Below are positions 12,860 through 54,290 of a DNA stretch of 64,000 nucleotides, piece after piece (position 1 is the stretch's first letter; every line of letters begins with the position of its first letter). The stretch is from Botryllus schlosseri (Eukaryota). A program made the position numbers and the translations under genes. Below the pieces are notes generated by a model that made no database searches, was not told the origin of the DNA, and saw only the letters and a list, made by a program, of their open reading frames with translations. The stretch is taken from positions 4,900,001 through 4,964,000 of the forward strand of contig CM119372.1 in NCBI GenBank assembly GCA_051294905.1, read 5' to 3'.

Positions 12860-13575
12860 ATCATCATCATCATCATTGGTTTATTAGCAATTTTATCAGT
12901 TCAATACACCACAAAAAATGCGATACAATGAAAAGACAGGAAGATGTCGAAGCGACAAGGAGTAGTCTATGGAACTGACACCCACCTTGGCCTAGGCGAT
13001 GTAAAGAGGAGGCATGCACACTGAATGAAAGTAAAGAAGATAGTATAGAAAAAGAAAGCGACAAGAAATAGGGCGGCATGCCATGGGAAGCGAGATCGAT
13101 AGGTCAGTCGTGGCCCGGTAATCTTGAGAATGGACTGTATTTATTTAGTAGTAATTGCTTGTATTTCGACTTGAATGTGGACATGCTCGTCGACTGTCGG
13201 ATGGCCGGCGGGATACTGTTCCACACATCAGGTCCGGCATATTTGATAGAGCGATGATCTTTTCGGTCGATCATATGATATTTGGACGACGTGGACGCGC
13301 GTGTGTTGTACTTGTGCGTTTTTGATTTCGAGATAAAGAAGTCATTGAAATATTCGGGGCAACGACCGCAGTGGAACTGATACATAAACTTGGCGATTTC
13401 TAGTTTCCGCATATCTTCTATGTTTAGGACGCCGAATCTCTTCAGCAGCGACTTGTTGGATGGGCAGCCAGGCCCATTTGGGGCCCTAGCTATGATTCGG
13501 AGTACTTTATGCTGTAGTTTTTGCAGTGGCTTGAGTGCAGTTTTACTGGCAGTCCTCCCAACAGAGGATGCCATA
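12860..13575 (-). mobile_element. 5'-truncated non-LTR retrotransposon (CR1/L2/Crack-like): ORF2 C-terminus, 3' UTR and (TGA)n tail
   Basis: ORF 13104-13574 reads LQKLQHKVLRII...HKYNTR...SIKYAGPDVWNSIPPAIR..SMSTFKSKYK, typical of CR1-group ORF2 ends. The 3' UTR recurs at 13930-14125 and 34625-34786. Confidence 0.8.
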
Positions 13576-22200: not shown

Positions 22201-25200
22201 AACTAACATTTTCAACCTGGTTTTCGACTTCACCTCCACCGACCCGATAACAAATTACCAAGACATGAGGAAAAGCGTGCACGAGCAAATCAAAAACGCG
22301 GTAAGATCATCAGCCCCAGACGTCTCCATAGTTTTTTCTAAATTCTTCCTCACGATAACACTTCTCGAATTGATAATTATAGTCTAATATTAATTAGAAG
22401 CACCAACGCTCAGGTCCGCTCAAAATCTTACCATATTATTCAGGTCGTGGAGGCGATGCGCTACAACAACGCAATCGACTTCCGCGATTATGTAATCCTA
22501 AATTCTGACGTCGCAGGACAGAACGTCGTCCGGGTGACGGCTGCGCTGTTTTTGGGCAAGGATTGTGAGTAGAAATCGTTCAAGTCGCTTTTGCGGACTG
22601 AAAAGCAAGTTAAAAATCTGTGTGACAGGGCAAGACGGGTCTGTACTCATCGAGACGACTATAACAGATGAATTCAAAGAAAGCGTCCAGATTCCTACTG
22701 GCGCTATCGCAAAGGATTCTATCAAAGTTTCAGGTCTCGTAAGCGATCTGTGTGAACTAGAATGGCGCTCCGCCGTAAGCAGAAAAAGCGATATTCACAA
22801 ATGCGATCTCATCGTCTAAGAAAACATGGTGAAATTCTTCGGAAATCCAAATCCAAGCACGCCTTAACCTTAAGCATGTCAATTTTGACCTTTGGTCTTT
22901 TTAACCGAATTATCTCACCCATCTCAGTCAACATTTTGGACTTGATTCATTGCTTGTTTTAGCGTACTGTGAAATCTATACTAATCCGTAAATGACATGC
23001 ACGATGTGATTGGCAAATTTTGTCGAACCTATATGCGAATTGTGATCGGAATGATTTGTCCATTTCGCCTGTACGTATGTGCGTGTTACCGCTCGAAGCG
23101 AGCGCGACCCTATAATTCCGATGCCTCCTGTTATCTCCCATTAGTATCTACCTCACCACCAAGAGTACCGCTTGGAGGAATACGGAAATATACGACGAAT
23201 ACTGTATGGATTCCTAACGCCTTATTGTTGGGAACACGGGTGATATTTTTAGACTTCGCCGAATGTGGCACGCAGTACCAGGATTGTGGCGGCAATATAT
23301 GCAAAAACACGCTGGGTTCATTCACGTGCGAATGCCCACACGGACACGTTGATGTGAGTGAAGACTACGGGAGACTACCGGGACGGAAATGCATCAGTGA
23401 GTACAGCCAGGATTTGACGGAGAGTGCTGATTTCTCAGCTTACCAATATTTTTGATTGTACAGTATTCGACGCACCGGGCTCGTTCCTGTTAGCAGTACT
23501 AGACCCGAAGACCGTGCGTGTCAGTTTTACAATACCGCATCAGCTTCGAAACGAATTATACAAATTTTGGTTCAAGATCCAATACAAAAGAAAAGGCGGC
23601 GTGCAAGTTAGAGGTGACAATATTCTGCATCGCATTGTCCTGTACACGCATAATCGCATATTCCCTCGGCAATGCTGCACTTGAAACATATGGGAATTTC
23701 CTGTGGGTGGACGGAACCGACAATTGAGACATCACTTATCCATAGTCTTTGAAGAGGCTCGCAATCCTGCTAGGTGATTCAATAACACCGAGATCGGTTA
23801 CCTTTCCATAATCGCTCGTTTCATTGTTAATGCCGCTTATCTGTAGTTTCACATTGCTTTCGCGACAATTGGGTTCCGACAAAACCTACCACAATTCCTT
23901 AATCTTAGGACTTTGATAAGTAATTGCACTCAACACTTGACTTCCTCAATACGAAATTGTCAAACGTACATAATGCATTCGTATTTTAATAATTACCCCC
24001 TCAGGATTCATCGGTACTAATTAAAGTTGTTGCCATAATTTGGTATATGTATTTACGATTAATTTATATACAAATGCGTGAAGAGCTTGCTGGAGGTACA
24101 AAGGACGATCACGACGTGTCACAATTGTTGATATACAATGTTCTCTCCAATTCTCTTGGAGTTGCTGACAATTACCCCTGACGAGTGTCAGCCGAAAATA
24201 TTCGGGTTATTTTCAATATGAATATACTACTCAATTATATACAAATGCCTACCACATTTGTTGCCTGTAAAACTCTGGCATATCATGATTACATGTATTA
24301 TAATATATGAGATACTGTAACGACAAATAAATCCATTCCTGAAATTCGCAGAAACCATGGTTGAGGTGGATTCTGGGAATTTCACAGAAGAGGGATACAT
24401 CGTAACCAAAGCCGTCACACATTTGCGGATGAATAGTGTATTTCTATTCCGAGCAGCGGCGGAAAACAAAAATGCAGTTGGGAGATATTCTACGTGGGTG
24501 GAGGCAAAAATTTGTAAGTTCTATATTTCAGCATTCTGAATCACGCAAATATATGTATTTCATGTATTAGTGCACTTATGGGTGTTCACTGTTCGTGTTT
24601 TTATTTTACGTCGCAGCCGCTAATATTTATGAAGCCAAGATGAATTTTACGGAGCTGTTATACAGAAAGATGTTCAGGCTACCCAGATCGGAAATCTACC
24701 TCAAAACGTCCGAAGGGGTTCGCAAGTTTGTAAGAACATGCACCACGAAACCGCGGTTTTCACCACTAACCCTGACATTTTATACAGCTCAACAGAATCA
24801 TGGCTCCAAGAATGTCGCAGTACAAGAATTCCGGAGAAATTAAGCTGATCCCTGGAATCAAGGGAAGAACATTTGCGTAAGTGTAGCGGGAGCGCGAACA
24901 ACAATTTTTTCAAGCGAATAATTCTCTTTTGTTGCAATTTTAGGATCGTGCAAATGTTTTTCGATGCGTCCTCCTACGTTGATCCGAAGCAAGTTTCGGA
25001 CATGTTCAAATACAACGATATCACAGATAACCCCTACGGTTTAGACTTCACGAGCGTGGAGCTGCGAGGTAGGTGTACTGTTCCGAGAGCGTGTTAAATA
25101 TATTGATACTTCATAATGAGTCTATATGCTTTAACTACACGAAATATATTGTCATCGACCTTAGGATATTAAGTATTGCGGGTTTAATTTGTCTAATCAT

Positions 25201-31200: not shown

Positions 31201-34200
31201 ATTTATGTTGGTTTACGAAATACTTCTGAGTCCCCTTCGAGCACGCTCCCCACCCTATTAAGGAATTTAGGGTGCGGCAGGTAAAGACCATTGCAATAAT
31301 GCAAATCGTTGGATGCGATAAATCATCCACTATAAAGTTGGGCAATTGGTAGGCCTATATTATGACGTAATAAGCAAATGACGCATGATGTATGACGAGA
31401 GTTGATATCTCATTAAGCCTTTTCATCGCAATCCTTGTATTGTCTTCCAATATATCATTTAAGATTATAGTCCTAAGAAACAAAACAAATGTAATCGTGA
31501 GTAATCATGATTACTTTTCCAATGTAATCGTAATCGTAATCGACTACTTCCTGATTTTGCTGTAATCGTAATCGTAATCGTAATCGCGTGATTCCGAAGT
31601 AATCGTAATCGCAATCGATTACATTCATAAAGTAATCACCCCATGTCTGACTAGAACCCCATTCGACTTCCGTGCATCGGAGTAACCGTCAGAGATGGGC
31701 CAAAAGCAACCCTACTGGCACCGAGATTCCCTAACCTCCACCAAGATTTTATCCTGACTACGCCAATGCTTCCGAGTCATTTGATTTCGCAGTAAAATAT
31801 GAAGTATCGATATCAATGATCTTAATGTTGTTATTGTGTAATATTAGGTCCGGCGTGTCTACTCAAGCCTCCGTTCTTCCGACCAATATCGCCAGATCGA
31901 TTTTGGGGATGCTGGCCACGTTACCTTCCGGCCACACGTCGATCAAGGTATTCGCTTCTGGATCTGATTCGAAATGACGCTTGACATCTACATTTCAATA
32001 CAGGGACCGAGGCTACGTTCCTTGTCTTTTTAACCGACAAGAGTGATGGTGGCGCTCGCATACTAAAGTCGGCTTTCGATGACGCCTCGAAAAAGATCCC
32101 AAACCCAAGAGATCTCCAACTAATGGCAGTTACAGGTAACGATGTTCTGTACCATATTCGTCATTATCCGCGGCTAACATTATACATTTCAATTCTTGGA
32201 CATCACGCAGACTTCAACGAGTGTAAATCGGACGACTTTATGGATTGCGACCAAAATGCAGAGTGCCGCAATGTTGACGGTACATTCTTTTGTAACTGTG
32301 GGCCCGGATATACCGACACCAGCGTGTTATACAACCTACTTCGGGGACGAAAGTGTGAAGGAAAAGGCACAACTACGACAAGTCAGTTAAAATTTGAAAC
32401 TTTCCCCATATCAATAGATTGGTCATTCCTTGAAAGGAAATATCTCACCACTTTGATTATTGCAGCGACCACAACTACTACAACAACAACAACTGCTACG
32501 ACAACAACAACTATTGCGCAACCTAATAACATGATTCAGGCGACCCCGAACAACCTTCCTGGGCTGGTTATCAGCGATCGAGAAAATATAACCCCAAGCC
32601 CACGACTTCCACCGCGAACCCCACTGCGTACTCAGCGACCTTCGACTACGGTAGCACCGCCCAGAACATCTCGTCGACCGTTTCAGACGCCGCCACGTTA
32701 TCAATTGACAAGGTGAGAGCCAAATAATGTTCATCATCACTGCTATCGATTAAGTACAACCAAAAGCATTGTTGATCAATTTACTGTTACAATTGCTACA
32801 TTCAGCAGAATCTTTCTATTATAACGGTGTCACCCTAAGATCCCGCAACGAGGGAAAACGACGAGCTAAATATCACGGAGCTCAGTCGCATCGAAGATTT
32901 GTTTGTTTCATTCACAACATTGGTACTTATCGCCTATAAGGTCATTTGCGCGCAGCACGGTAATTTCAGTAAGATCAGTGTCTCTGCGGTCTTTTTGTCA
33001 TACTACGAACGACTTTCGTTCTCGTGCTGTCCCGCCATCGCGTCCATATCTTCAGTCTTCGCTGCCGACTTTTTTGGCTCGGCCCACCTTCACTCTAGAG
33101 CAGAGGTCTCAAACTCAAATGAGCTCGCGGGCCAATTTCCCAGTTATGATGACGCCGCGGGCCGCAGCATCAATAATGAGGATATCCAATGTAATATTTC
33201 CAAGTAGGCCTTTTTTGACGGGACCTTATAGACAGGCATTCCACAATCATCTCAAATATATAATTTACTCTTGTAGTATTCACGTTTGACACGGAAAAAT
33301 TCATATTATCAAATATTTGAATAAAATTGTTTTTGTGGGGGCACAATTTTCTTTTAATTAATGAGTTATAGACATCATAGGAGATGATGCATCATTCACC
33401 CTCTATTATTCCAATGAGATATCTCGTTGCCCCTGACCATTTTCAACACGATTTCAGATGGTACCTATATGAAAATCAGAAAGCCCATTCACATAACATC
33501 GCGCATAGCGGCAATACTATTTTCCAGTTGAATAAATTGGCCAATAAAATAGGCCTATTCCACAGCATATAGGCGAATTCCACAATGCATCTCGTGGTGA
33601 GGTGCTTCGTTCCCCGATGGGGTCTACGTACCCTGGTTAAGAACCCCTGGAATAGAAATGTCCAATCGGTCAAGAATTCATTGGTGTAACAGCTGTAGAG
33701 CGTACTAATGCATTTGTCGACACCGATAATAAAATGGATAAATAGAACAAACAACACCCAAAATGTAACCAACTATACGTCACGGGGGTCACAGAATGCC
33801 AATGGTAGCCGTACAGACCTGATTAGATAGCTACATATCCTACGCAACGCAAGCAACGATGTTTTGATATATTACTATTCCCCATGACAGTTTCATAGAT
33901 TGTTTCGTCCGTAGAAATACCAAGTCACCGTTCCGAGTCGCAAATCCTTCTCTGATTTTACCGTTTGACCTGACTCAACTCAAGTCATTTTTATTAACTC
34001 ACTCAGTCAATCCTAAATTGAGTAATTTTACGAGAAGGTCGCACCTAACTAAATCAACATTTTCAGTCACGAATCATCAAGGGTCATGTTTTATCATCAT
34101 GAATTAGAAATGTGACGTTAGCAGATCTTTCACTGCTTAGCAGCTTTTAAAAGTGATGTGATAGTGAGATTTTTCGAGATTTCAGTGATCTTTATAGTAG

Positions 34201-37200
34201 TTTTAGGGTGAACTTTAAGATCTTGTATCTAAAAAAGATATATGGCACTGGAATGTATTGTTGAATACTTGAAATTCCAAAATGCCATCGCGGGCCGCAC
34301 AAAATCCTCTCGCGGGCCGCGTGTTTGAGACCTCTGCTCTAGAGTCTAGGCTTTTACATACACTGCAATCGCAGCGAGGTTAGCGATGATGATTCGAACC
34401 GCTTCCATTAGTGTCGCCACGCTGGCGCTTAACGAAATGCGCCACTCGCTTACCAGTCGCAACGAAGTAAATAAGTCCTTGTCCACAATATTCGTTAAAA
34501 ATCAGTTGTAATATGACACGAGATATTCAACATTGGTAGAAATGCAATAAATTTGGGCTTTTCGAACGACATTACTATAGTTAGTTGCCATCGCTTCCAT
34601 TTTCCATATACACTTGAAATAGGTCAATCAATCAATCAGGTTTATTTTCATCGTTTCAAAACATCGCAAGACTGCGATACAATGAAAAGATAGGAAGGTG
34701 TCGAAACAACTTGGAGTAGCCTTTAAGATCAGACACCTACCTTAGCCTAGGCGAAGTAAATAAGAGGCATGCACACTGAATGAAAAAGTGATTTGTGGTA
34801 CAGAACTTCAGAATAACGCGAAACAATAACTTCATATTGTTAATTTATTCGCTAAAAGCTTTTCGACTAACTCTCATCAGTAGCGAACGTTAGTGATAGG
34901 GTGAATCAAATTCGAAATGTAAGAACTATTTTGTCTGTATGACGTAATAATAACAAAAACAAACTACTAGTAGACGGGCTAGATGCGGTAGTAACGGTAC
35001 AAAACAAACGTTAACGAGTACATATTCGGTTATAAATAACCGAAAACACAACACATAACATTAATGAAATATTCCAAGAGTGTAGAGGCGTTCCTTTTGG
35101 CGACAGAGAATCGGCTTTCGTAGCTTGATGATCGTAGATTCCAGGACCTTTAAATGAAAAAGAGAACGGCCACGAGCAAGTATAGAAAATTGACTGTCAT
35201 TGTAATGATCAGCACATTCTGGATGGGATAAGAGATGCTGTCCAATAGCCGAATTACAAGCAGTAACTTGATCATAATCACGCAGTGTGTCAACAGACTG
35301 CGATGAAGGAGTTGGAGAAACATTATTTATTCTAATTTGCCGTGGGACATGCTGGCGAATTCTTTGCTGCAAGCGCTGAGACGTGCGACCTACATACCGA
35401 CTGTCACATCGGCACGTGTATTCATATATTATGTTGCTTTGATTTGTCGCAGGTAGCACATCCTTTTGCGTTGCAGGCATCAGAGATTTCGTCATGAAGA
35501 TTATCTGAGGTTTTACTTGTGAAAAACAATGACTCACTGACGATTTAATTTGTTTTTCAAACCTGTTGGACACTTTCCCAATCCAAGGAAGATGCAAATA
35601 AACAGGACATTTCTTAGGTCCAAACGGTTTAACTTTTCTGAAATCTTTGAGTTTACGATCTATGGTCATTTTAATGATATGATCAGGATAACCATTTGAC
35701 TGAAAGATTGACCGAATGTTCTCCAATTCAGAATCAAGTTTGACTTTACTACAAATCATCAGAGCCCTGTGTACCAGAGTTCTTATCAAATTTACTTTAC
35801 GTTTTACTGGACAGAAAGAATCCCACGAAATGTATTGCCCACTGAATGTAGGCTTACGGTAAACTGATGTAACAAAATTAGCACCCGTCTTTTCCACTAC
35901 AACATCAAGGAATGCTAATGAATTATTAACCTCTTTTTCCATGGTGAATTTCAGTGATGGGTGAAGACCATTCAATTTGCTCAGAAACAAATCACACTGG
36001 GATTCATTTTCAAATATGGCGAAGGTGTCATCAACATATCTTTGATACATTAATGGTCGATCAATATCTTCGAATAACCGTTTTTCGTAATACCCCACAA
36101 AAATGTTAGCCAGAATGGGACCAAGCGGCGATCCCATTGCAACACCATCGATCTGTGTATATATGGTGTTATTGAAACTAAATTCGACATCACAAGTGAT
36201 CAATCGCATTAATTTAACAAAAGAAGACCTTGAGAATGGAGGAGATGGAAGGACACCACCATAGAGTTCATTGGCACAAATCTCTATAGTCTCTTGAACT
36301 GGCACGTTCGTGAATAAACTAGATATATCAAACGAACACATAGAGATTTCGGACTCATCGAGATCAACATTACGAATGGTATCAGCAAATGTGAACGAGT
36401 CACGAATGCAGTTACCACCATAGAACAAACTCACCGGCTCAAGATATCTCGCAATCCACTTCGCGACTTTGTGATACGCTGATCCAACCATCGATAGTAT
36501 CGGACGTAAGGGTACATTCGATTTATGGGTCTTCGGAAGACCATACATACGTGGTCGAATAGAGCCAGTGGGTCTGATGTCGTCGTATTCAGCAGAAGAG
36601 ATTTTTTCCCGCCTTCTTGAGGGTCAATAGTAGACGCTGAATACGAGCTTCTATCTTGGAGGTGTTGTCATTGTCACACGCAGGGCCAAGGATTTCAAAT
36701 TTAGACTTGTCGCCGAGAATTGAATCCATTTTAGAAATGTAGTCACACTTATTCAAAATGACTACACCAGATCCTTTATCAGGTTTGGTTATGTGAATTG
36801 ACTTATTGGATTTCAGGGATCTGATGCTCCTGTAGCAATCGGACGTCATCGTGAAATCACTTCTGTCGATTGGAGTTCCACAAAAACCATGCGCTAAGCT
36901 ACTTAGTTTGGCTTTAAGTGCCACAATTTTCTCACTGTGTTCCTTAGCTCTGCTTTCATCATCAAATTTCTGGTGGTGATGTGACAATTGTCCAAGTAAT
37001 ACCTCAAATTCAGCAAAGACTTCCTCACGCTTGATTTCTGTCGGTGGCACAGAAAAATTAAGACCAAGAGATAGTACCAACTCTTCTGTGTCACTCAGCT
37101 CATAGTCCGATAAGTTGGTAATAACCTTACTACCACCAACTGCCTTGGTACCGTATCGTGTCTTGAGAAGCAAGCTGATGTTACGCTCATTCTGCCGTAC

Positions 37201-40200
37201 CTTCTCATCCTCTTTACGTGCATCAATTTTGGCCATATAACGACAAAACCGTATCAGGTCAAAATAAGATAAAAACTGCACTGCCTGCTGCTTAAGCTTG
37301 GCACAACGTTGAGTTACGGTTTTGTCGTTATATGGCCAAAATTGATGCACGTAAAGAGGATGAGAAGGTACGGCAGAATGAGCGTAACATCAGCTTGCTT
37401 CTCAAGACACGATACGGTACCAAGGCAGTTGGTGGTAGTAAGGTTATTACCAACTTATCGGACTATGAGCTGAGTGACACAGAAGAGTTGGTACTATCTC
37501 TTGGTCTTAATTTTTCTGTGCCACCGACAGAAATCAAGCGTGAGGAAGTCTTTGCTGAATTTGAGGTATTACTTGGACAATTGTCACATCACCACCAGAA
37601 ATTTGATGATGAAAGCAGAGCTAAGGAACACAGTGAGAAAATTGTGGCACTTAAAGCCAAACTAAGTAGCTTAGCGCATGGTTTTTGTGGAACTCCAATC
37701 GACAGAAGTGATTTCACGATGACGTCCGATTGCTACAGGAGCATCAGATCCCTGAAATCCAATAAGTCAATTCACATAACCAAACCTGATAAAGGATCTG
37801 GTGTAGTCATTTTGAATAAGTGTGACTACATTTCTAAAATGGATTCAATTCTCGGCGACAAGTCTAAATTTGAAATCCTTGGCCCTGCGTGTGACAATGA
37901 CAACACCTCCAAGATAGAAGCTCGTATTCAGCGTCTACTATTGACCCTCAAGAAGGCGGGAAAAATCTCTTCTGCTGAATACGACGACATCAGACCCACT
38001 GGCTCTATTCGACCACGTATGTATGGTCTTCCGAAGACCCATAAATCGAATGTACCCTTACGTCCGATACTATCGATGGTTGGATCAGCGTATCACAAAG
38101 TCGCGAAGTGGATTGCGAGATATCTTGAGCCGGTGAGTTTGTTCTATGGTGGTAACTGCATTCGTGACTCGTTCACATTTGCTGATACCATTCGTAATGT
38201 TGATCTCGATGAGTCCGAAATCTCTATGTGTTCGTTTGATATATCTAGTTTATTCACGAACGTGCCAGTTCAAGAGACTATAGAGATTTGTGCCAATGAA
38301 CTCTATGGTGGTGTCCTTCCATCTCCTCCATTCTCAAGGTCTTCTTTTGTTAAATTAATGCGATTGATCACTTGTGATGTCGAATTTAGTTTCAATAACA
38401 CCATATATACACAGATCGATGGTGTTGCAATGGGATCGCCGCTTGGTCCCATTCTGGCTAACATTTTTGTGGGGTATTACGAAAAACGGTTATTCGAAGA
38501 TATTGATCGACCATTAATGTATCAAAGATATGTTGATGACACCTTCGCCATATTTGAAAATGAATCCCAGTGTGATTTGTTTCTGAGCAAATTGAATGGT
38601 CTTCACCCATCACTGAAATTCACCATGGAAAAAGAGGTTAATAATTCATTAGCATTCCTTGATGTTGTAGTGGAAAAGACGGGTGCTAATTTTGTTACAT
38701 CAGTTTACCGTAAGCCTACATTCAGTGGGCAATACATTTCGTGGGATTCTTTCTGTCCAGTAAAACGTAAAGTAAATTTGATAAGAACTCTGGTACACAG
38801 GGCTCTGATGATTTGTAGTAAAGTCAAACTTGATTCTGAATTGGAGAACATTCGGTCAATCTTTCAGTCAAATGGTTATCCTGATCATATCATTAAAATG
38901 ACCATAGATCGTAAACTCAAAGATTTCAGAAAAGTTAAACCGTTTGGACCTAAGAAATGTCCTGTTTATTTGCATCTTCCTTGGATTGGGAAAGTGTCCA
39001 ACAGGTTTGAAAAACAAATTAAATCGTCAGTGAGTCATTGTTTTTCACAAGTAAAACCTCAGATAATCTTCATGACGAAATCTCTGATGCCTGCAACGCA
39101 AAAGGATGTGCTACCTGCGACAAATCAAAGCAACATAATATATGAATACACGTGCCGATGTGACAGTCGGTATGTAGGTCGCACGTCTCAGCGCTTGCAG
39201 CAAAGAATTCGCCAGCATGTCCCACGGCAAATTAGAATAAATAATGTTTCTCCAACTCCTTCATCGCAGTCTGTTGACACACTGCGTGATTATGATCAAG
39301 TTACTGCTTGTAATTCGGCTATTGGACAGCATCTCTTATCCCATCCAGAATGTGCTGATCATTACAATGACAGTCAATTTTCTATACTTGCTCGTGGCCG
39401 TTCTCTTTTTCATTTAAAGGTCCTGGAATCTACGATCATCAAGCTACGAAAGCCGATTCTCTGTCGCCAAAAGGAACGCCTCTACACTCTTGGAATATTT
39501 CATTAATGTTATGTGTTGTGTTTTCGGTTATTTATAACCGAATATGTACTCGTTAACGTTTGTTTTGTACCGTTACTACCGCATCTAGCCCGTCTACTAG
39601 TAGTTTGTTTTTGTTATTATTACGTCATACAGACAAAATAGTTCTTACATTTCGAATTTGATTCACCCTATCACTAACGTTCGCTACTGATGAGAGTTAG
39701 TCGAAAAGCTTTTAGCGAATAAATTAACAATATGAAGTTATTGTTTCGCGTTATTCTGAAGTTCTGTACCACAAATCACTTGTTCAAATACTTTCGCAAA
39801 AGGTACAGTGACCAACAATTGGAGATCCTTAATAAGTTGGTCAGAACTCGGGGGAAAATTCGAAATCTACGGTATCATGTAGCCTTTCTTAAGGCTTGTA
39901 TAAAGAAAAGAGTTGTACCAAAGTTTCTGAAGACGAGGATAGAGAAATCGCGTGCTCGCATCAACTCCAGAATTGAGAGTGCATTTTTACATGATGAGAT
40001 CGAGAACAGCGTAAAAGAGATGAGTACCGTAACTCAACGTTGTGCCAAGCTTAAGCAGCAGGCAGTGCAGTTTTTATCTTATTTTGACCTGATACGGTTT
40101 TGTCGTTATATGGCCAAAATTGATGCACGTAAAGAGGATGAGAAGGTACGGCAGAATGAGCGTAACATCAGCTTGCTTCTCAAGACACGATACGGTACCA

Positions 40201-43200
40201 AGGCAGTTGGTGGTAGTAAGGTTATTACCAACTTATCGGACTATGAGCTGAGTGACACAGAAGAGTTGGTACTATCTCTTGGTCTTAATTTTTCTGTGCC
40301 ACCGACAGAAATCAAGCGTGAGGAAGTCTTTGCTGAATTTGAGGTATTACTTGGACAATTGTCACATCACCACCAGAAATTTGATGATGAAAGCAGAGCT
40401 AAGGAACACAGTGAGAAAATTGTGGCACTTAAAGCCAAACTAAGTAGCTTAGCGCATGGTTTTTGTGGAACTCCAATCGACAGAAGTGATTTCACGATGA
40501 CGTCCGATTGCTACAGGAGCATCAGATCCCTGAAATCCAATAAGTCAATTCACATAACCAAACCTGATAAAGGATCTGGTGTAGTCATTTTGAATAAGTG
40601 TGACTACATTTCTAAAATGGATTCAATTCTCGGCGACAAGTCTAAATTTGAAATCCTTGGCCCTGCGTGTGACAATGACAACACCTCCAAGATAGAAGCT
40701 CGTATTCAGCGTCTACTATTGACCCTCAAGAAGGCGGGAAAAATCTCTTCTGCTGAATACGACGACATCAGACCCACTGGCTCTATTCGACCACGTATGT
40801 ATGGTCTTCCGAAGACCCATAAATCGAATGTACCCTTACGTCCGATACTATCGATGGTTGGATCAGCGTATCACAAAGTCGCGAAGTGGATTGCGAGATA
40901 TCTTGAGCCGGTGAGTTTGTTCTATGGTGGTAACTGCATTCGTGACTCGTTCACATTTGCTGATACCATTCGTAATGTTGATCTCGATGAGTCCGAAATC
41001 TCTATGTGTTCGTTTGATATATCTAGTTTATTCACGAACGTGCCAGTTCAAGAGACTATAGAGATTTGTGCCAATGAACTCTATGGTGGTGTCCTTCCAT
41101 CTCCTCCATTCTCAAGGTCTTCTTTTGTTAAATTAATGCGATTGATCACTTGTGATGTCGAATTTAGTTTCAATAACACCATATATACACAGATCGATGG
41201 TGTTGCAATGGGATCGCCGCTTGGTCCCATTCTGGCTAACATTTTTGTGGGGTATTACGAAAAACGGTTATTCGAAGATATTGATCGACCATTAATGTAT
41301 CAAAGATATGTTGATGACACCTTCGCCATATTTGAAAATGAATCCCAGTGTGATTTGTTTCTGAGCAAATTGAATGGTCTTCACCCATCACTGAAATTCA
41401 CCATGGAAAAAGAGGTTAATAATTCATTAGCATTCCTTGATGTTGTAGTGGAAAAGACGGGTGCTAATTTTGTTACATCAGTTTACCGTAAGCCTACATT
41501 CAGTGGGCAATACATTTCGTGGGATTCTTTCTGTCCAGTAAAACGTAAAGTAAATTTGATAAGAACTCTGGTACACAGGGCTCTGATGATTTGTAGTAAA
41601 GTCAAACTTGATTCTGAATTGGAGAACATTCGGTCAATCTTTCAGTCAAATGGTTATCCTGATCATATCATTAAAATGACCATAGATCGTAAACTCAAAG
41701 ATTTCAGAAAAGTTAAACCGTTTGGACCTAAGAAATGTCCTGTTTATTTGCATCTTCCTTGGATTGGGAAAGTGTCCAACAGGTTTGAAAAACAAATTAA
41801 ATCGTCAGTGAGTCATTGTTTTTCACAAGTAAAACCTCAGATAATCTTCATGACGAAATCTCTGATGCCTGCAACGCAAAAGGATGTGCTACCTGCGACA
41901 AATCAAAGCAACATAATATATGAATACACGTGCCGATGTGACAGTCGGTATGTAGGTCGCACGTCTCAGCGCTTGCAGCAAAGAATTCGCCAGCATGTCC
42001 CACGGCAAATTAGAATAAATAATGTTTCTCCAACTCCTTCATCGCAGTCTGTTGACACACTGCGTGATTATGATCAAGTTACTGCTTGTAATTCGGCTAT
42101 TGGACAGCATCTCTTATCCCATCCAGAATGTGCTGATCATTACAATGACAGTCAATTTTCTATACTTGCTCGTGGCCGTTCTCTTTTTCATTTAAAGGTC
42201 CTGGAATCTACGATCATCAAGCTACGAAAGCCGATTCTCTGTCGCCAAAAGGAACGCCTCTACACTCTTGGAATATTTCATTAATGTTATGTGTTGTGTT
42301 TTCGGTTATTTATAACCGAATATGTACTCGTTAACGTTTGTTTTGTACCGTTACTACCGCATCTAGCCCGTCTACTAGTAGTTTGTTTTTGTTATTATTA
42401 CGTCATACAGACAAAATAGTTCTTACATTTCGAATTTGATTCACCCTATCACTAACGTTCGCTACTGATGAGAGTTAGTCGAAAAGCTTTTAGCGAATAA
42501 ATTAACAATATGAAGTTATTGTTTCGCGTTATACTGAATGAAAAGTAATGCAGAACATATAATACTATTAACAATACAGAAATTCATTTTAATTGCATAA
42601 AAAGGGCAAGGTGTAGTACGAGCCTTTCATTCACCCAATGTCATCAGCGACTATCGTCAATGCTGCGGTACGAATCGATGTGGATATAGCCACATTTCAG
42701 AAACAAATTGACAAGGTGCTGAATCGCATTTAGGCTGCCAAGGACAACGATATCTTCAGATCGAACCACGCCATCGTCCGGTGTTCAACTTCGCCGATTC
42801 AGGCTCCCCAACTCCGGTCCGTCGCTCAGCCTTCCCGGGGTTCGCCCACAAAGTCCTTTCGGCGGGCCTAGACCCTCATTTCGTCGGATTGGACCGACCC
42901 TACAGTACAAACCTACCATGTCGTGTGGAAGAGGGCTGACTCCTGTCGATGGCGTGTGCGAGCGTGAGTACAGTTACTCTGGAATGCTACTTGTACTTAC
43001 GTTACAAATGGTGCGTATGATTTACAGGTGTCTTCAAATATCAAGGCGTCGCACATATCAAGAAACTAAATGGGAAGGACATAACATACGAAGAAACTGT
43101 CCGGACCCCGATCACCGACGTTGTCAAGGCAGCGGTATGTTCATCAATATGTTGAATCAGTATTGGCTCCGGACATTATATTTCTCTGTATTTACTTATT

Positions 43201-46200
43201 TCTTACGTAACCAAATCCATCATCGTTTACTTGCGAAAACAAAGAGGGTATCTATTCTGTCCAGACTAATAATGTGTAACCGTCTTGGTTAGAGCCATGT
43301 CTCCACGATCTACAATAAATAAATATATTCCGCATCTGTATGAACAGTGAAAACTTCACCACTGCCGTCGACTCGTTCCCATCACGTTAAGACCAAGATT
43401 AAATAAACTAGCAAACCAATTCTCCCATTAACTGCGACTATAACAGAACAATAATTCCATTTCGTTCAATTGCTATAACCGCTTTACCGGGTTTTGTATT
43501 AAGTTATACCATAGTGTCCTATATGGTATGGACACAAGCAAATCTCACTGAGCCGTGAGATTGGTCAACGTGACACTTTCCATTTGGTCAAAGGCAATTT
43601 GACGGTAATTTTTGACTGGCTTTCCGAGCATTAAATTTGATAAAACGGGTATCAATCGAAAGCCACCGCGGTATTGATTGCGAAAATATAAGTTTTATTC
43701 TTCTCGTGGTCCTGGAACCCCCCAAAATCAGCCTCGAATGTTGCATTGTAACAAAGTTTGGTATTGCGACGAAGCCATGCCGTCTGGGAGCAGCGAAAAC
43801 CGCAAGGTTATGGGCCATCGTTGCGCAACAGATTGAGCAATGAGTATTCGCACTCTCACTCTCGTCCGCACTTTCTTCTGAGCTGCTATAGTTGCGCCAC
43901 GATACCAAACTGCATTACAATGCAACATTCAAGGCTGATTTTGGGGGTTCCAGGGCCACGAGCAGCTGTAGCTTTCGATTGATTCGCAGTAGCTTTCGAT
44001 TGATACCCGTTTTATCAAATTTAATGCTCGGAAAGCCGGTCAAAAAGCAGCGTCAAATTGACTTTGACCAAATGGAAAGTGTGACGTAAACCAATCTCAC
44101 TGAGCCGTGAGATTTGCTTGTGTCCATACCATATAGGACACTATGGTTATACCGTATAGTACATTTGTATGCCTGTAACTTATTTCATGAGAGTTAAGAC
44201 GAACCTAAGCAAATTTTAAACTTTGTAAAATGAGCCTTTGGTAAATATTGTTGAGTATAGCCCTGACAGAACTTTGTCATATTTCAGCTTGATCTCGTCC
44301 TTCGTGCATCCGGTTTGGACGGGTTCAAGGGAGTACAGGTGGTCGGCCTCAGTCGGCAGCGACCGGCGCAGAAATTCGGAGTCAACACAAATTTCCTTGT
44401 TTACGTAGCGAAGCCGGATAGCAGCGCGCGAGGAGACAGAGTTAAAAGACAGATCTACACACCCAGGTCACAGGCATGTAGCAGGACGATGCACTATAAT
44501 CATAAACGAACGATCAGACTAATGATACTATATTTTAATACACAGTCCAGGAAAACGACAACATGGGGCGTGGCAAAAAGTTACTTCATGAAATCGCTGA
44601 CGTCGATGAACGTGGAAGGCTTGATTTCAACCTCAAAAGGGACTGTACAATTCGATATATCGGAAAGCAGCGTAAAATTTTCAGGTTTGTTGACAATTTA
44701 TTCACGAGGAATAGGGGTAAAAGTTACAAAGTTACGTGATTTTGAAGATTACGATGAATGTAAGAATAAAGACCAGGACACGGATTGCCAGGCAGTTAGA
44801 TCGAGATGCATAAACACCCCGGGGTCTTACACGTGTCGTTGCAGGGAACTATTTTCTGATAGCGACCCAGACTATCCCGGCAGGCAGTGTGTGGGTAAGA
44901 ACATAGCGGCTATATGTTTTCTCGACATGGGAATTCAATTTTATTTTTGCGTATTCTTTCAGATCAGTGCATGGCATATAAATGTGAAAACGGTGGACGA
45001 TGTACCGCCAGGGTTGATGACACACCCAGATGTACTTGTCTCAAAGGTTTCATTGGCGAAAAATGCGAAATAGGTAAAGTGGCAATGAATGCGCTCTTCT
45101 CGTGATCACCGACAAACAACATAGTTTAACCGTTACAGAGGACAACGGTCCTAACTATACGTTAATCGGGGTCGCAGTTGGAGTGATAGGATTCGTGGTG
45201 GTAATCATGGGAGTGACTTGCTTCGTCTTAAGAATACTGCAAAGGCGAAAATCAGCTGCGAGGAAATCGGCTACCAAGAGTAATCGTAATGGGTATGTGT
45301 GACGTTTAACACTTGTACATGTACACATATAAGATTGGATCAATCGATGAAGGCTCTGTTAAGTCGTATTAACCGCTTGACATTAAAATAACTAACGAAA
45401 TTATTTTTCACTCCGCGCAACTCCGAAACACTGCTCAAGTGCTCGCTAGCGCTCAACGACCACGCTATAATACCTTCAAAATGATGCATAGCGTCTGAAC
45501 TCTGCTCTAAGTTGTTTTATGACGTTGAGTTGTTCAACTAACTGACATTATACATCACAAATTTTGCACGTTTCTATTGGGCTGCGCGTGGCCCCGGGCT
45601 GTGGCATTTTGTGATAGGGATCGCTTACCAGTTACCAGCCTTGCACGTCGCGATTTATGAAACACTTAGACCAGTGGTTCTCAACCGGGGGTCCGTGAAG
45701 CATTTTTAGAAGGTCCGCGAAGCCTCTAAATTTACAAAATGATTGATAACCGTATTGTTATTTTATTTTAAAAATTGCGAAATGACGAGGCACTTTCGCT
45801 TCATCATTGCTACAATTTAATGACTCACATTAACCGAATGACCGTCTGAGATGAAATATCCTACTGTGCAAACTCATTTCAATTGCCAATAGGAAAGGAA
45901 AGGACGTAGTTTATTTTTGTCCTTGATGTTTTTGCGGCATATACACCGACTCATGATACACATACACACGATCTGCGCATATGCATACCATGAGTGCATG
46001 ATGTGCATATGCCGCTGGACAAGGAAGTGCAGATATAGCCTTTACAGCTTTCTAAGTCATGCACCACCCCTCCATGCTATCCCAGTAATGCATGAGCGCC
46101 AAGCAGGGAAGCCATGGATACCAGTGTTACTAATCAGGTCTTTGGTCTGACCCGGCCGGGAATCGAACCCACGACCTACCGATCAAGAAGCCGGGCGCTT

Positions 46201-53975: not shown

Positions 53976-54112
53976 AAGTGATTCTCAGCACCTGATGTAA
54001 CACCACAAGAAACAATAACTTCCATAGTCAATTTATTCACCAAAAGCTTCTCGACTGACTCTCATCAGTAGAGAACACTAGTAATACAGTCGAACAAATT
54101 CGAGATATAGGA
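53976..54112 (-). mobile_element. Diverged solo pseudo-LTR related to the Penelope element, with a decayed hammerhead
   Basis: Minus strand GTTCTCTA-CTGATGA-GAGTCAGTC-GAGA-AGCTTTTGGTGAATAAATTGACTATGGAAGTTATTGTTTC...AATCACTT aligns with 39645-39781; core GAAA changed to GAGA. Confidence 0.8.
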
Positions 54113-54290
54113 AATATAGATAGCTAATGATATATATAAAGTCTATTGACTGAAATGCTGCATGAAGGATGTAGACACCAGTTGTTCGTAACCTTTACTT
54201 AACTTGAAGAACACTCGTACTAATTACTACGATTATGTTCATTATTACTATTACTATGTTCCTATAGCTTACTGGCGCACAAAATGAACT

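Follow-up and report, generated by a model that had tools for sequence, protein, structure and literature searches.

The 64,000-nucleotide stretch of the Botryllus schlosseri genome analyzed here (the window; assembly GCA_051294905.1, contig CM119372.1, positions 4,900,001 to 4,964,000 of the forward strand) probably contains one insertion of an intact Penelope-like element (PLE), likely very recent, in which three identical hammerhead ribozyme motifs, predicted to act only in pairs, mark the junctions between units, and which likely arose by two internally primed reverse transcription (RT) events on an RNA that was continuous through the ribozyme site. The insertion occupies 34787-42532 (7.7 kb; positions are those of the window) and consists of an inverted 5'-truncated arm, a 2.4-kb truncated copy and a full unit. 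When the unit is numbered from the base right after the predicted hammerhead cut (+1), the direct arm (37315-42532) reads as unit 381-2778, then the full unit, then +1 to +42, for a total of 1.88 units.

Architecture of the insertion

A preliminary description of this DNA had placed the element at 39673..42498, bracketed by two hammerheads. The full unit and both hammerheads are real, but that extent covers only about a third of the insertion, and a third, identical hammerhead in the inverted arm, with its core at 34880 on the minus strand, had been overlooked. The repeat that had been taken as a short pseudo-long terminal repeat (pLTR) is in fact a direct repeat of 2440 nt with 100% identity (37315-39754 = 40093-42532), so the 'pLTR' amounts to most of a second element, and a 724-aa remnant of the open reading frame (ORF) persists in this upstream copy at 37332-39506. 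The inverted arm is 99.96% identical to the unit over 2466 nt, with one gap, by BLAST of the unit against the window; one extra base in an A run near 36602-36609 shifts its frame and leaves split ORFs at 36589-37236 and 35061-36548. The arms join head to head at a 6-nt microhomology (37315-37320, unit 314-319 versus 381-386). The identity of the arms and the perfect target-site duplication (TSD) indicate that the insertion is likely very young.

A partial tandem, an adjacent inverted 5'-truncated copy and a one-sided 30-40-bp tail are described as typical of PLEs (PMC8557442; PMC3846280), and a partial tandem, an inverted 5'-truncated copy, a one-sided tail and a TSD are all found at this locus (Table 1). 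As far as those accounts describe them, canonical endonuclease-containing PLEs of the Penelope/Poseidon type (Craig et al., 2021, PMC8557442; Arkhipova et al., 2013, PMC3846280) share with this element a single ORF of ~840-850 aa with a telomerase-like reverse transcriptase, a C-terminal GIY-YIG domain with CCHH and a DKG motif, as well as the insertion layout, a short TSD and a repeat that includes the first ORF codons. The present locus differs from them in that both truncated copies are near full length (2.4-2.5 kb) and the tail is 26-32 nt, compared with 30-40 in the published elements.

It is extremely improbable that a single unit was turned into tandem and inverted copies by an error in long reads or in assembly. 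Such an origin would fit the 100% identity of the arms, the one-base homopolymer difference and the absence of this locus's inversion joint among the 15 joints shown for a DNA sequencing run (X1), but the 12-bp duplication is exact, the arms end at the two natural end points of the family, and the same layout is seen at two loci of a sister family (L033 and L069). As for the full unit, an independent public contig of 2808 nt (= 2778 + 30) encodes a 99%-identical protein.

Probable internal starts of reverse transcription

When DNA contigs of run X1 were placed on one permuted unit, their summed depth climbed across the ORF from 5' to 3', peaked at 146,264 at 39702-39794 and fell 38-fold in the next bin, and the loose ends listed included 39748, 39753, 39755 and 39789 (with 481 more). 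This drop and these ends indicate that RT of family copies begins ~36-77 nt downstream of the ribozyme site, from where it proceeds back across that site. At the sister-family junction, 8 of 13 BLAST alignments end at +26 to +32 (four) or +54 to +61 (four), within homologous codons; L033 and L069 each have one short and one long end, on opposite arms, and L069 has a 12-bp duplication as read by eye. In the present copy the RT starts lie 23 and 49 nt into the ORF. Since RT starts 42-68 nt inside the unit and must cross the cut, a linear excised unit cannot serve as template without a template jump, so the template was continuous at this position, either because it was uncleaved or because it had been re-ligated.

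A comparable system is the Poseidon element PAc of Anolis carolinensis (Frangieh et al., 2024, PMC11167929), for which it was reported that two internal RT starts bound the tail, that both target strands are extended in vitro, that ribozyme cleavage is dispensable, and that no RNA-seq ends fall at the hammerhead cut. The B. schlosseri element shares with PAc the internal RT starts inside the beginning of the ORF, flanking an AC-rich stretch, a presumed extension from both strands of the target, and the lack of RNA ends at the hammerhead. The two differ in geometry, since the PAc cut is 26 nt downstream of the start codon with RT starts at 111-118, whereas the cut predicted here is 19 nt upstream. 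They may also differ in priming, which was reported to occur without homology in PAc (PMC11167929), whereas both ends of this insertion match the target at 5 of 6 bases (background 0.0064 and 0.0063; the length was chosen after looking). Target-element microhomology is weak, by eye, at the four ends of L033 and L069, so this 5/6 matching is not generalized to the family.

One-base deletions at 39710 reach 7.5% of depth compared with about 5-9% at other homopolymers, so there is no sign of imprecise joining. Loose ends of four X1 contigs at 39712 were considered as copies ending at the cut and rejected, since the sequence there looks like the ordinary continuation found in a diverged subfamily.

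Table 1. Features of the PLE insertion, in window coordinates.
Feature	Position	Strand	Basis or remark
Left TSD, 12 bp	34775..34786	+	Identical to 42533-42544; extendable on neither side
Inverted 5'-truncated arm, unit 314-2778 then +1 to +68 ('tailed', longer end)	34787..37320	-	BLAST of unit against window and exact comparison
Third hammerhead, same sequence as hammerheads 1 and 2; cut predicted between 34855 and 34854	34848..34893	-	Motif scan, core at 34880
Head-to-head junction, 61-nt spacer between inverted arms	37254..37320		Sequence comparison
5'-truncated upstream copy, unit 381-2778, making the partial tandem ('pLTR')	37315..39712	+	100% identical to 40093-42490
Hammerhead 1, type I; predicted cut after 39712	39674..39719	+	Sequence; pair counts on 8 related motifs
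Full unit between two predicted cuts, 2778 nt	39713..42490	+	Comparison of unit with window
Intact 850-aa ORF, reverse transcriptase and GIY-YIG	39732..42284	+	ORF translation
Untranslated 3' part of unit (206 nt, 41% U), with 5' half of hammerhead 2 at its end	42285..42490	+	Sequence
Hammerhead 2, same sequence as hammerhead 1; cut predicted after 42490	42452..42497	+	Sequence
Short end, unit +1 to +42: start of next unit up to inferred RT start	42491..42532	+	Family ends cluster here
Right TSD, 12 bp	42533..42544	+	Identical to left copy

A compact, pseudoknotted hammerhead

The identical cores at 39687 and 42465 (plus strand, 2778 nt apart) and the predicted cut after a UUU triplet at 39712 and 42490, with the first ATG 19 nt downstream, were confirmed as first described. 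In hammerhead 1, stem I (39680-39686/39713-39719) has 7 bp, the core runs from 39687, stem II has 2 bp, and the stem III region is a 6-nt palindrome (39706-39711). The type I anatomy and a palindromic stem III suited to dimer cleavage had been recognized in the preliminary description, which missed a 5-bp pseudoknot between the bases preceding stem I (39674-39678) and loop II (39696-39700). By these predicted pairings the ribozyme is a compact pseudoknotted form, not the long-stem-II minimal type, and its three identical copies are predicted to cut only as dimers.

In the window the compact core pattern is found four times, compared with a mean of 0.08 and a maximum of 1 in 100 dinucleotide shuffles. 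A search with hammerhead models, which had been proposed as a check, did not recover a hammerhead family: Rfam over 33000-44000 at E<=10 gave 7 matches, none of them a hammerhead and all far below gathering scores, so the identification depends on the core, the stems and their covariation and not on a library match. Scanning 110 related loci for the compact motif gave 10 matches, one of which (L088) was dropped as its second stem II pair fails; the other 9, at loci with 46-64% identity in their best segment, share the design with different letters. A gap-free alignment was made of 8 motifs, 3 from the window and 5 from the sister family, with L004 and L055 excluded for length differences and L001, L003, L025 and L038 not included. 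In this alignment 91.9% of 136 cells were paired and two-sided changes were found in 8 of 17 pairs; none of 500 shuffles scored as high and slid controls gave 31-43%, figures that carry no probability given the kinship among the sequences. The pseudoknot helix was 95% paired and the palindromic stem III 95.8%, each with one two-sided change, and L004 and L055 supply two further letter sets of a 4-bp pseudoknot.

Loop II has a second potential partner downstream (39724-39728), which is present in the element's own family and in a diverged copy at 54068 and absent from the sister family, L004, L055 and another compact motif at 24178; therefore, the upstream strand is taken as the conserved pseudoknot. 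Matching variants of the two pseudoknot strands occur in run X1 (39676 A>G at 26% and 39698 T>C at 32% of depth, unphased), and in RNA run X24 the same variants were counted in 2 of 51 and 14 of 49 reads, which argues against tight linkage there.

At core position 3 the sister family (~59% aa identity; L001, L002, L003, L033, L038, L069) carries U; its palindrome and its UUU triplet are the same as here, and its ATG lies only 3 nt past the cut. Across 8 compact motifs the first ATG follows the cut by 3-21 nt, compared with 0-154 nt in 10 long-stem motifs, and relatives with ~30% identity mostly have the long-stem-II minimal hammerhead (28 rows). Published minimal PLE hammerheads (PMC4209133) are like the present one in being type I, with a palindromic, reduced stem III, a dimer requirement (for the present one a predicted one), a position at the unit junction and a proposed role in excision and circularization. 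As described in that source, their helix II is long (5-8 bp), their helix I is short and an additional unpaired base follows A9, whereas in the form found here stem II has 2 bp and stem I has 7, there is no such additional base, and the 5-bp pseudoknot is present. About 40% of hammerheads are reported to use a base-paired pseudoknot between loop II and stem I (Perreault et al., 2011, PMC3088659), and pseudoknotted hammerheads with a 2-bp stem II described there make the same contact, which in this autonomous PLE is joined with a dimer-type stem III.

Several other sequence features surround the cut. An AATAAA at 39718-39723 and 42496-42501, 6 nt past the predicted cut and overlapping stem I, is also found in the 54068 copy, is missing from the sister family, and could end precursor transcripts near +30 to +45. 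Within 39713-39756, the bases before the short RT start can pair with those right after the cut and so compete with stem I, and the same competing pairing is seen by eye in the sister family (L002 410-438); this could be a switch that blocks the ribozyme once the start of the ORF is transcribed. Finally, an ATG within the hammerhead core opens a 10-codon in-frame ORF (39690-39722) that ends 9 nt before the main ATG, and that cleavage would remove.

RNA reads and ribozyme activity

Three RNA runs carrying the same species label, from other individuals and read at 3-6%, placed 439 reads out of 12.9 million, 647 out of 22.2 million and 460 out of 22.2 million on the element; the sequencing-run search had returned no RNA run among the 20 holders listed. 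Depth at 39710 was 52, 73 and 110, with no step across the cut (49 to 39, 66 to 67 and 91 to 109). Cleavage in vivo, which the preliminary description had envisaged, is not supported by these reads, as ends did not pile up at 39713 in any of the three runs, a weak test in which the sole pile-up listed was at 39375. Coverage was concentrated on the 3' end of the element, on both strands, and in the bulk run X24 91% of reads continue into unlike sequence and no reads fall in 8 consecutive bins of the 5' ORF, as expected of truncated copies inside host transcripts. One read peak at 41004-41096 (runs X22 and X23), with a variant at 41078 that is absent from X1 and a loose end at 40931, is an expressed truncated copy inside another transcript.

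It is quite unlikely that the hammerheads have ceased to cut and that the motif persists for a structural or protein-binding role. This possibility draws on the U at core position 3 of the sister family, on predicted folds that are inactive, and on the UUU triplet, which is a poor one for hammerhead cleavage. The thermodynamic values point the same way within their limits: folding z-scores are -1.2 to -1.3 and stem I has a pairing probability of 0 in a 201-nt context, in a model that leaves pseudoknots and dimers outside; closing stem III in the monomer costs 5.3 kcal/mol, and the double hammerhead reaches -16.5 compared with -30.5 for the misfold, with the pseudoknot not scored. In addition, PLE hammerheads were reported to be weakly active in vitro (PMC4209133). 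Against a non-cutting motif, the core, three stems, palindrome and pseudoknot covary across families that are 46-60% identical in protein, and the anole PLE hammerhead is reported to cleave with protein help (PMC11167929).

Template and route of insertion

In the reading favored here, the endonuclease would have made a 12-bp staggered cut, and each target strand would have served as primer for a cDNA that began just inside the ORF, at either of two sites separated by ~26-32 nt. The two cDNAs would then have continued back over the hammerhead and entered the ORF at its 3' end, and the two products would have joined head to head at the 6-nt microhomology; alternatively, the top-strand cDNA may have folded back at this microhomology before meeting the second cDNA. 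The most likely template would be an uncleaved tandem precursor, with a re-ligated circle second. The ribozyme would be under selection and would likely cleave a fraction of tandem transcripts, yielding an uncapped RNA with a 19-nt leader.

The preliminary description had proposed that paired hammerheads excise a 2778-nt unit. The palindromic stem III and the unit length agree with this proposal, but excision of this kind had been proposed for PLEs already in 2014, and a linear unit needs a template jump. According to the proposal of Cervera and De la Pena (2014, PMC4209133), which a review repeats (PMC6765202), PLE RNAs would cleave themselves, be ligated into circles and be copied by RT over more than one unit. 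A rolling-circle model of this kind, in which tandem hammerheads dimerize and excise the 2778-nt unit, an RtcB-type host ligase closes it, and RT from +42/+68 runs round to produce the 1.88-unit arm, is a possible but not a likely account of the locus. It would explain why the direct arm crosses the junction twice without change and why the arms stop close together on the unit (314 and 381). It would also fit the conserved ribozyme structure, with a type of pseudoknot known to speed cleavage (PMC3088659), and the reported circularization of retrozyme monomers by RtcB (PMC7229834). The 2808-nt public contig fits a closed 2778-nt unit, though tandem DNA gives the same. On the other hand, there is no direct sign of circles, 8 consecutive 5'-ORF bins are empty in the bulk RNA run, ribozyme mutants of another PLE still insert in vitro (PMC11167929), and a fold-back plus a second cDNA explains the locus from one unit plus 42 nt. 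An endless ORF on such a circle was considered and rejected, since stop codons interrupt the frame even though the unit length is divisible by 3.

Several observations weigh against an uncleaved precursor copied from two internal starts, or limit the data on which it depends. The junction sequence is identical for an uncleaved precursor and a circle, so the locus cannot tell them apart; the direct arm, by crossing the junction twice, fits a circle or a three-unit multimer, and a fold-back at the 61-nt loop with a second cDNA needs a template of only one unit plus 42 nt. Three of the 15 DNA joints shown, from a total of 17, end in 39709-39717 (p about 0.005, in a range chosen after looking, from single contigs of depth 7-8 at a palindromic site), which could mean that RT meets cleaved ends. 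Nearest-neighbor folding, in which the pseudoknot is not scored, favors inactive folds for both monomer and dimer, and the 8 aligned motifs are related, 5 of them coming from one family. The RNA test is weak, given that 3-6% of each run was read, that 439-647 reads were placed, that many of these derive from truncated copies within other transcripts, and that such libraries capture 5'-OH ends poorly. Finally, other individuals were the source of the runs, which leaves room for a lineage with local activity.

Age and source of the copy

The preliminary description had also suggested that this locus may be an active master copy, a view that is unsupported by the alleles of this copy. At 39054, 39440, 39470, 39602 and 40287 the window allele accounts for less than 0.5% of the family's depth in X1, and among RNA reads the other allele is found in 82 of 82, 23 of 24 and 14 of 16 at 39440 and in 79 of 79, 194 of 200 and 61 of 64 at 39602. 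As the DNA and RNA runs come from other individuals, this result does not refute master status, which is nevertheless very unlikely. The intact ORF, the 100% identical arms and the perfect TSD would suit a master copy, the upstream tandem copy could supply a promoter, and same-strand host exons on both sides make read-through plausible. Set against this, its private alleles hardly occur in the DNA and RNA of the family in any of the 4 runs, and pairing of the inverted arm with either direct copy, over 2434-2460 nt, would cover one hammerhead and give long double-stranded RNA. In a host-strand transcript the inverted arm could pair with 2460 or 2434 nt of either direct copy, so that a host transcript through this copy would form a 2.4-kb hairpin. 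The locus is therefore likelier to be a recent daughter than a source, and it may feed silencing through its hairpin-forming arm.

Encoded protein

The uninterrupted 850-aa ORF was confirmed by translation, and its identity as a PLE reverse transcriptase-endonuclease, as originally proposed, is supported by the combination of a reverse transcriptase with a C-terminal GIY-YIG domain, the DKG and CCHH motifs and a telomerase-like fold. The protein has a helical N-terminus, the DKG motif, a telomerase-like reverse transcriptase domain (D429, D528, D529) and, at its C-terminal end, GIY-YIG with CCHH residues C734, C736, H755 and H793, the two Cys lying within the GIY-YIG core. Pfam returned RVT_1 at E 7e-10, above the cut-off, and GIY-YIG at E 0.007 (728-756), below it. 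The predicted structure (pLDDT 89.6) has telomerase reverse transcriptases as all of its 13 best Foldseek matches (template-modeling score 0.28-0.32), followed by R2, retron and LINE-1.

Among 7999 scored candidates, 620 were relatives of this protein, and the query was aligned with 40 of the 120 relatives listed (41 sequences). D279, K280, C734, C736, H755, H793, R751 and E825 are invariant in this alignment, G281 is present in at least 90%, and the aspartates of the reverse transcriptase are invariant or nearly so. Residue 837, near the endonuclease C-terminus, is Cys in at least 90% of the aligned relatives; GIY-YIG endonucleases usually have Asn at the matching place.

Clade criteria (DKG, CCHH and linker) were those described in PMC8557442 and PMC3846280. 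By inspection of the translation, residues 660-727 between the reverse transcriptase and the endonuclease contain no CX2-5CxxC linker, which excludes the Neptune and Nematis clades; Naiad/Chlamys is excluded as the endonuclease is not N-terminal, and the Hydra clade, which is defined by DKT and no CCHH, is excluded by the DKG and CCHH of this ORF. The element thus fits the Penelope/Poseidon group, with its C-terminal endonuclease, CCHH and lack of the linker, an assignment made by motifs only.

Related motifs and genomic surroundings

Two further motifs of this type lie in the window. A solo compact hammerhead of another family at 24165-24215 (plus strand, core 24178) has the same pseudoknot design, a different palindrome, a UUC triplet and an ATG 14 nt past the cut; its second stem II pair is broken and no long ORF follows. 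At 54043-54117 (minus strand) is a diverged 75-nt fragment of the element's own family (82% identity) with a damaged core (GAGA), which has lost the upstream pseudoknot strand while its loop II and the downstream 5-mer are still complementary. A pattern search of viral contigs gave 57 matches, with no relative among them. Thirty relatives (L081-L110) are located on contigs that belong to metagenome-assembled genomes of bacteria; several of them show hammerheads and an inverted PLE layout, and these contigs are probably contamination from a host animal.

Exons for calcium-binding epidermal growth factor domains (EGF_CA) are found on the plus strand at about 23.3, 32.3 and 44.8 kb, on both sides of the insertion, which is therefore probably intronic if these belong to a single gene. 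Nearby, 43508-44147 is a 640-bp element resembling a miniature inverted-repeat transposable element, with 163-nt inverted arms (91%) and inner inverted repeats, and 13104-13574 (minus strand) holds a 156-aa ORF that resembles the C-terminal end of a LINE-type retrotransposon protein and has no Pfam match at E<=0.01. A bacterial promoter scan, a method not applicable to an animal locus, found nothing.

Implications for PLE ribozymes

The element class, the insertion layout, the hammerheads and the hypothesis of excision and circles are already in print, so the finding is not surprising in these respects. What this locus adds is the predicted ribozyme sub-form, with a 2-bp stem II, a covarying 5-bp pseudoknot and a cut 3-21 nt before the start codon, which is common to its relatives; no description of a 2-bp stem II with a pseudoknot and a dimer-type stem III in PLEs was found in the literature searched, although Lunse et al. 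(2017) may cover it.

Circles have been demonstrated for non-coding retrozymes (PMC7229834; bioRxiv 10.64898/2026.07.22.740005), and non-LTR retrozymes, like this element, are tandem units bounded by type I hammerheads; they are described as non-coding units of 150-400 nt, whereas this autonomous unit has 2778 nt and an 850-aa ORF, which excludes a retrozyme identity. In fungal RNA viruses, cleavage by a type I hammerhead is reported to drive cap-independent translation (PMC13725137). Those hammerheads share with the present one a short helix II and a cut a few bases before the start codon (7 nt in one case), and they differ from it in cleaving as isolated motifs. By analogy, this PLE branch may have swapped a slow long-stem hammerhead for a compact pseudoknotted one that is fast once two units pair, always cutting 3-21 nt before the start codon, so that the cut would free a 2778-nt unit to be closed into a rolling-circle template and would switch on cap-independent translation of the reverse transcriptase. 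This scheme is unlikely as a whole; if it were true, the intact tandem would be a ready substrate for settling the purpose of the PLE ribozyme.

The in vivo role of PLE hammerheads has been called unclear (PMC8557442). This locus provides an unmutated natural tandem together with an intact ORF, and its form of ribozyme should assay more easily than the sluggish minimal forms. The continuity of the template across the ribozyme site limits models of PLE insertion to an uncleaved precursor, a circle or a precise template jump.

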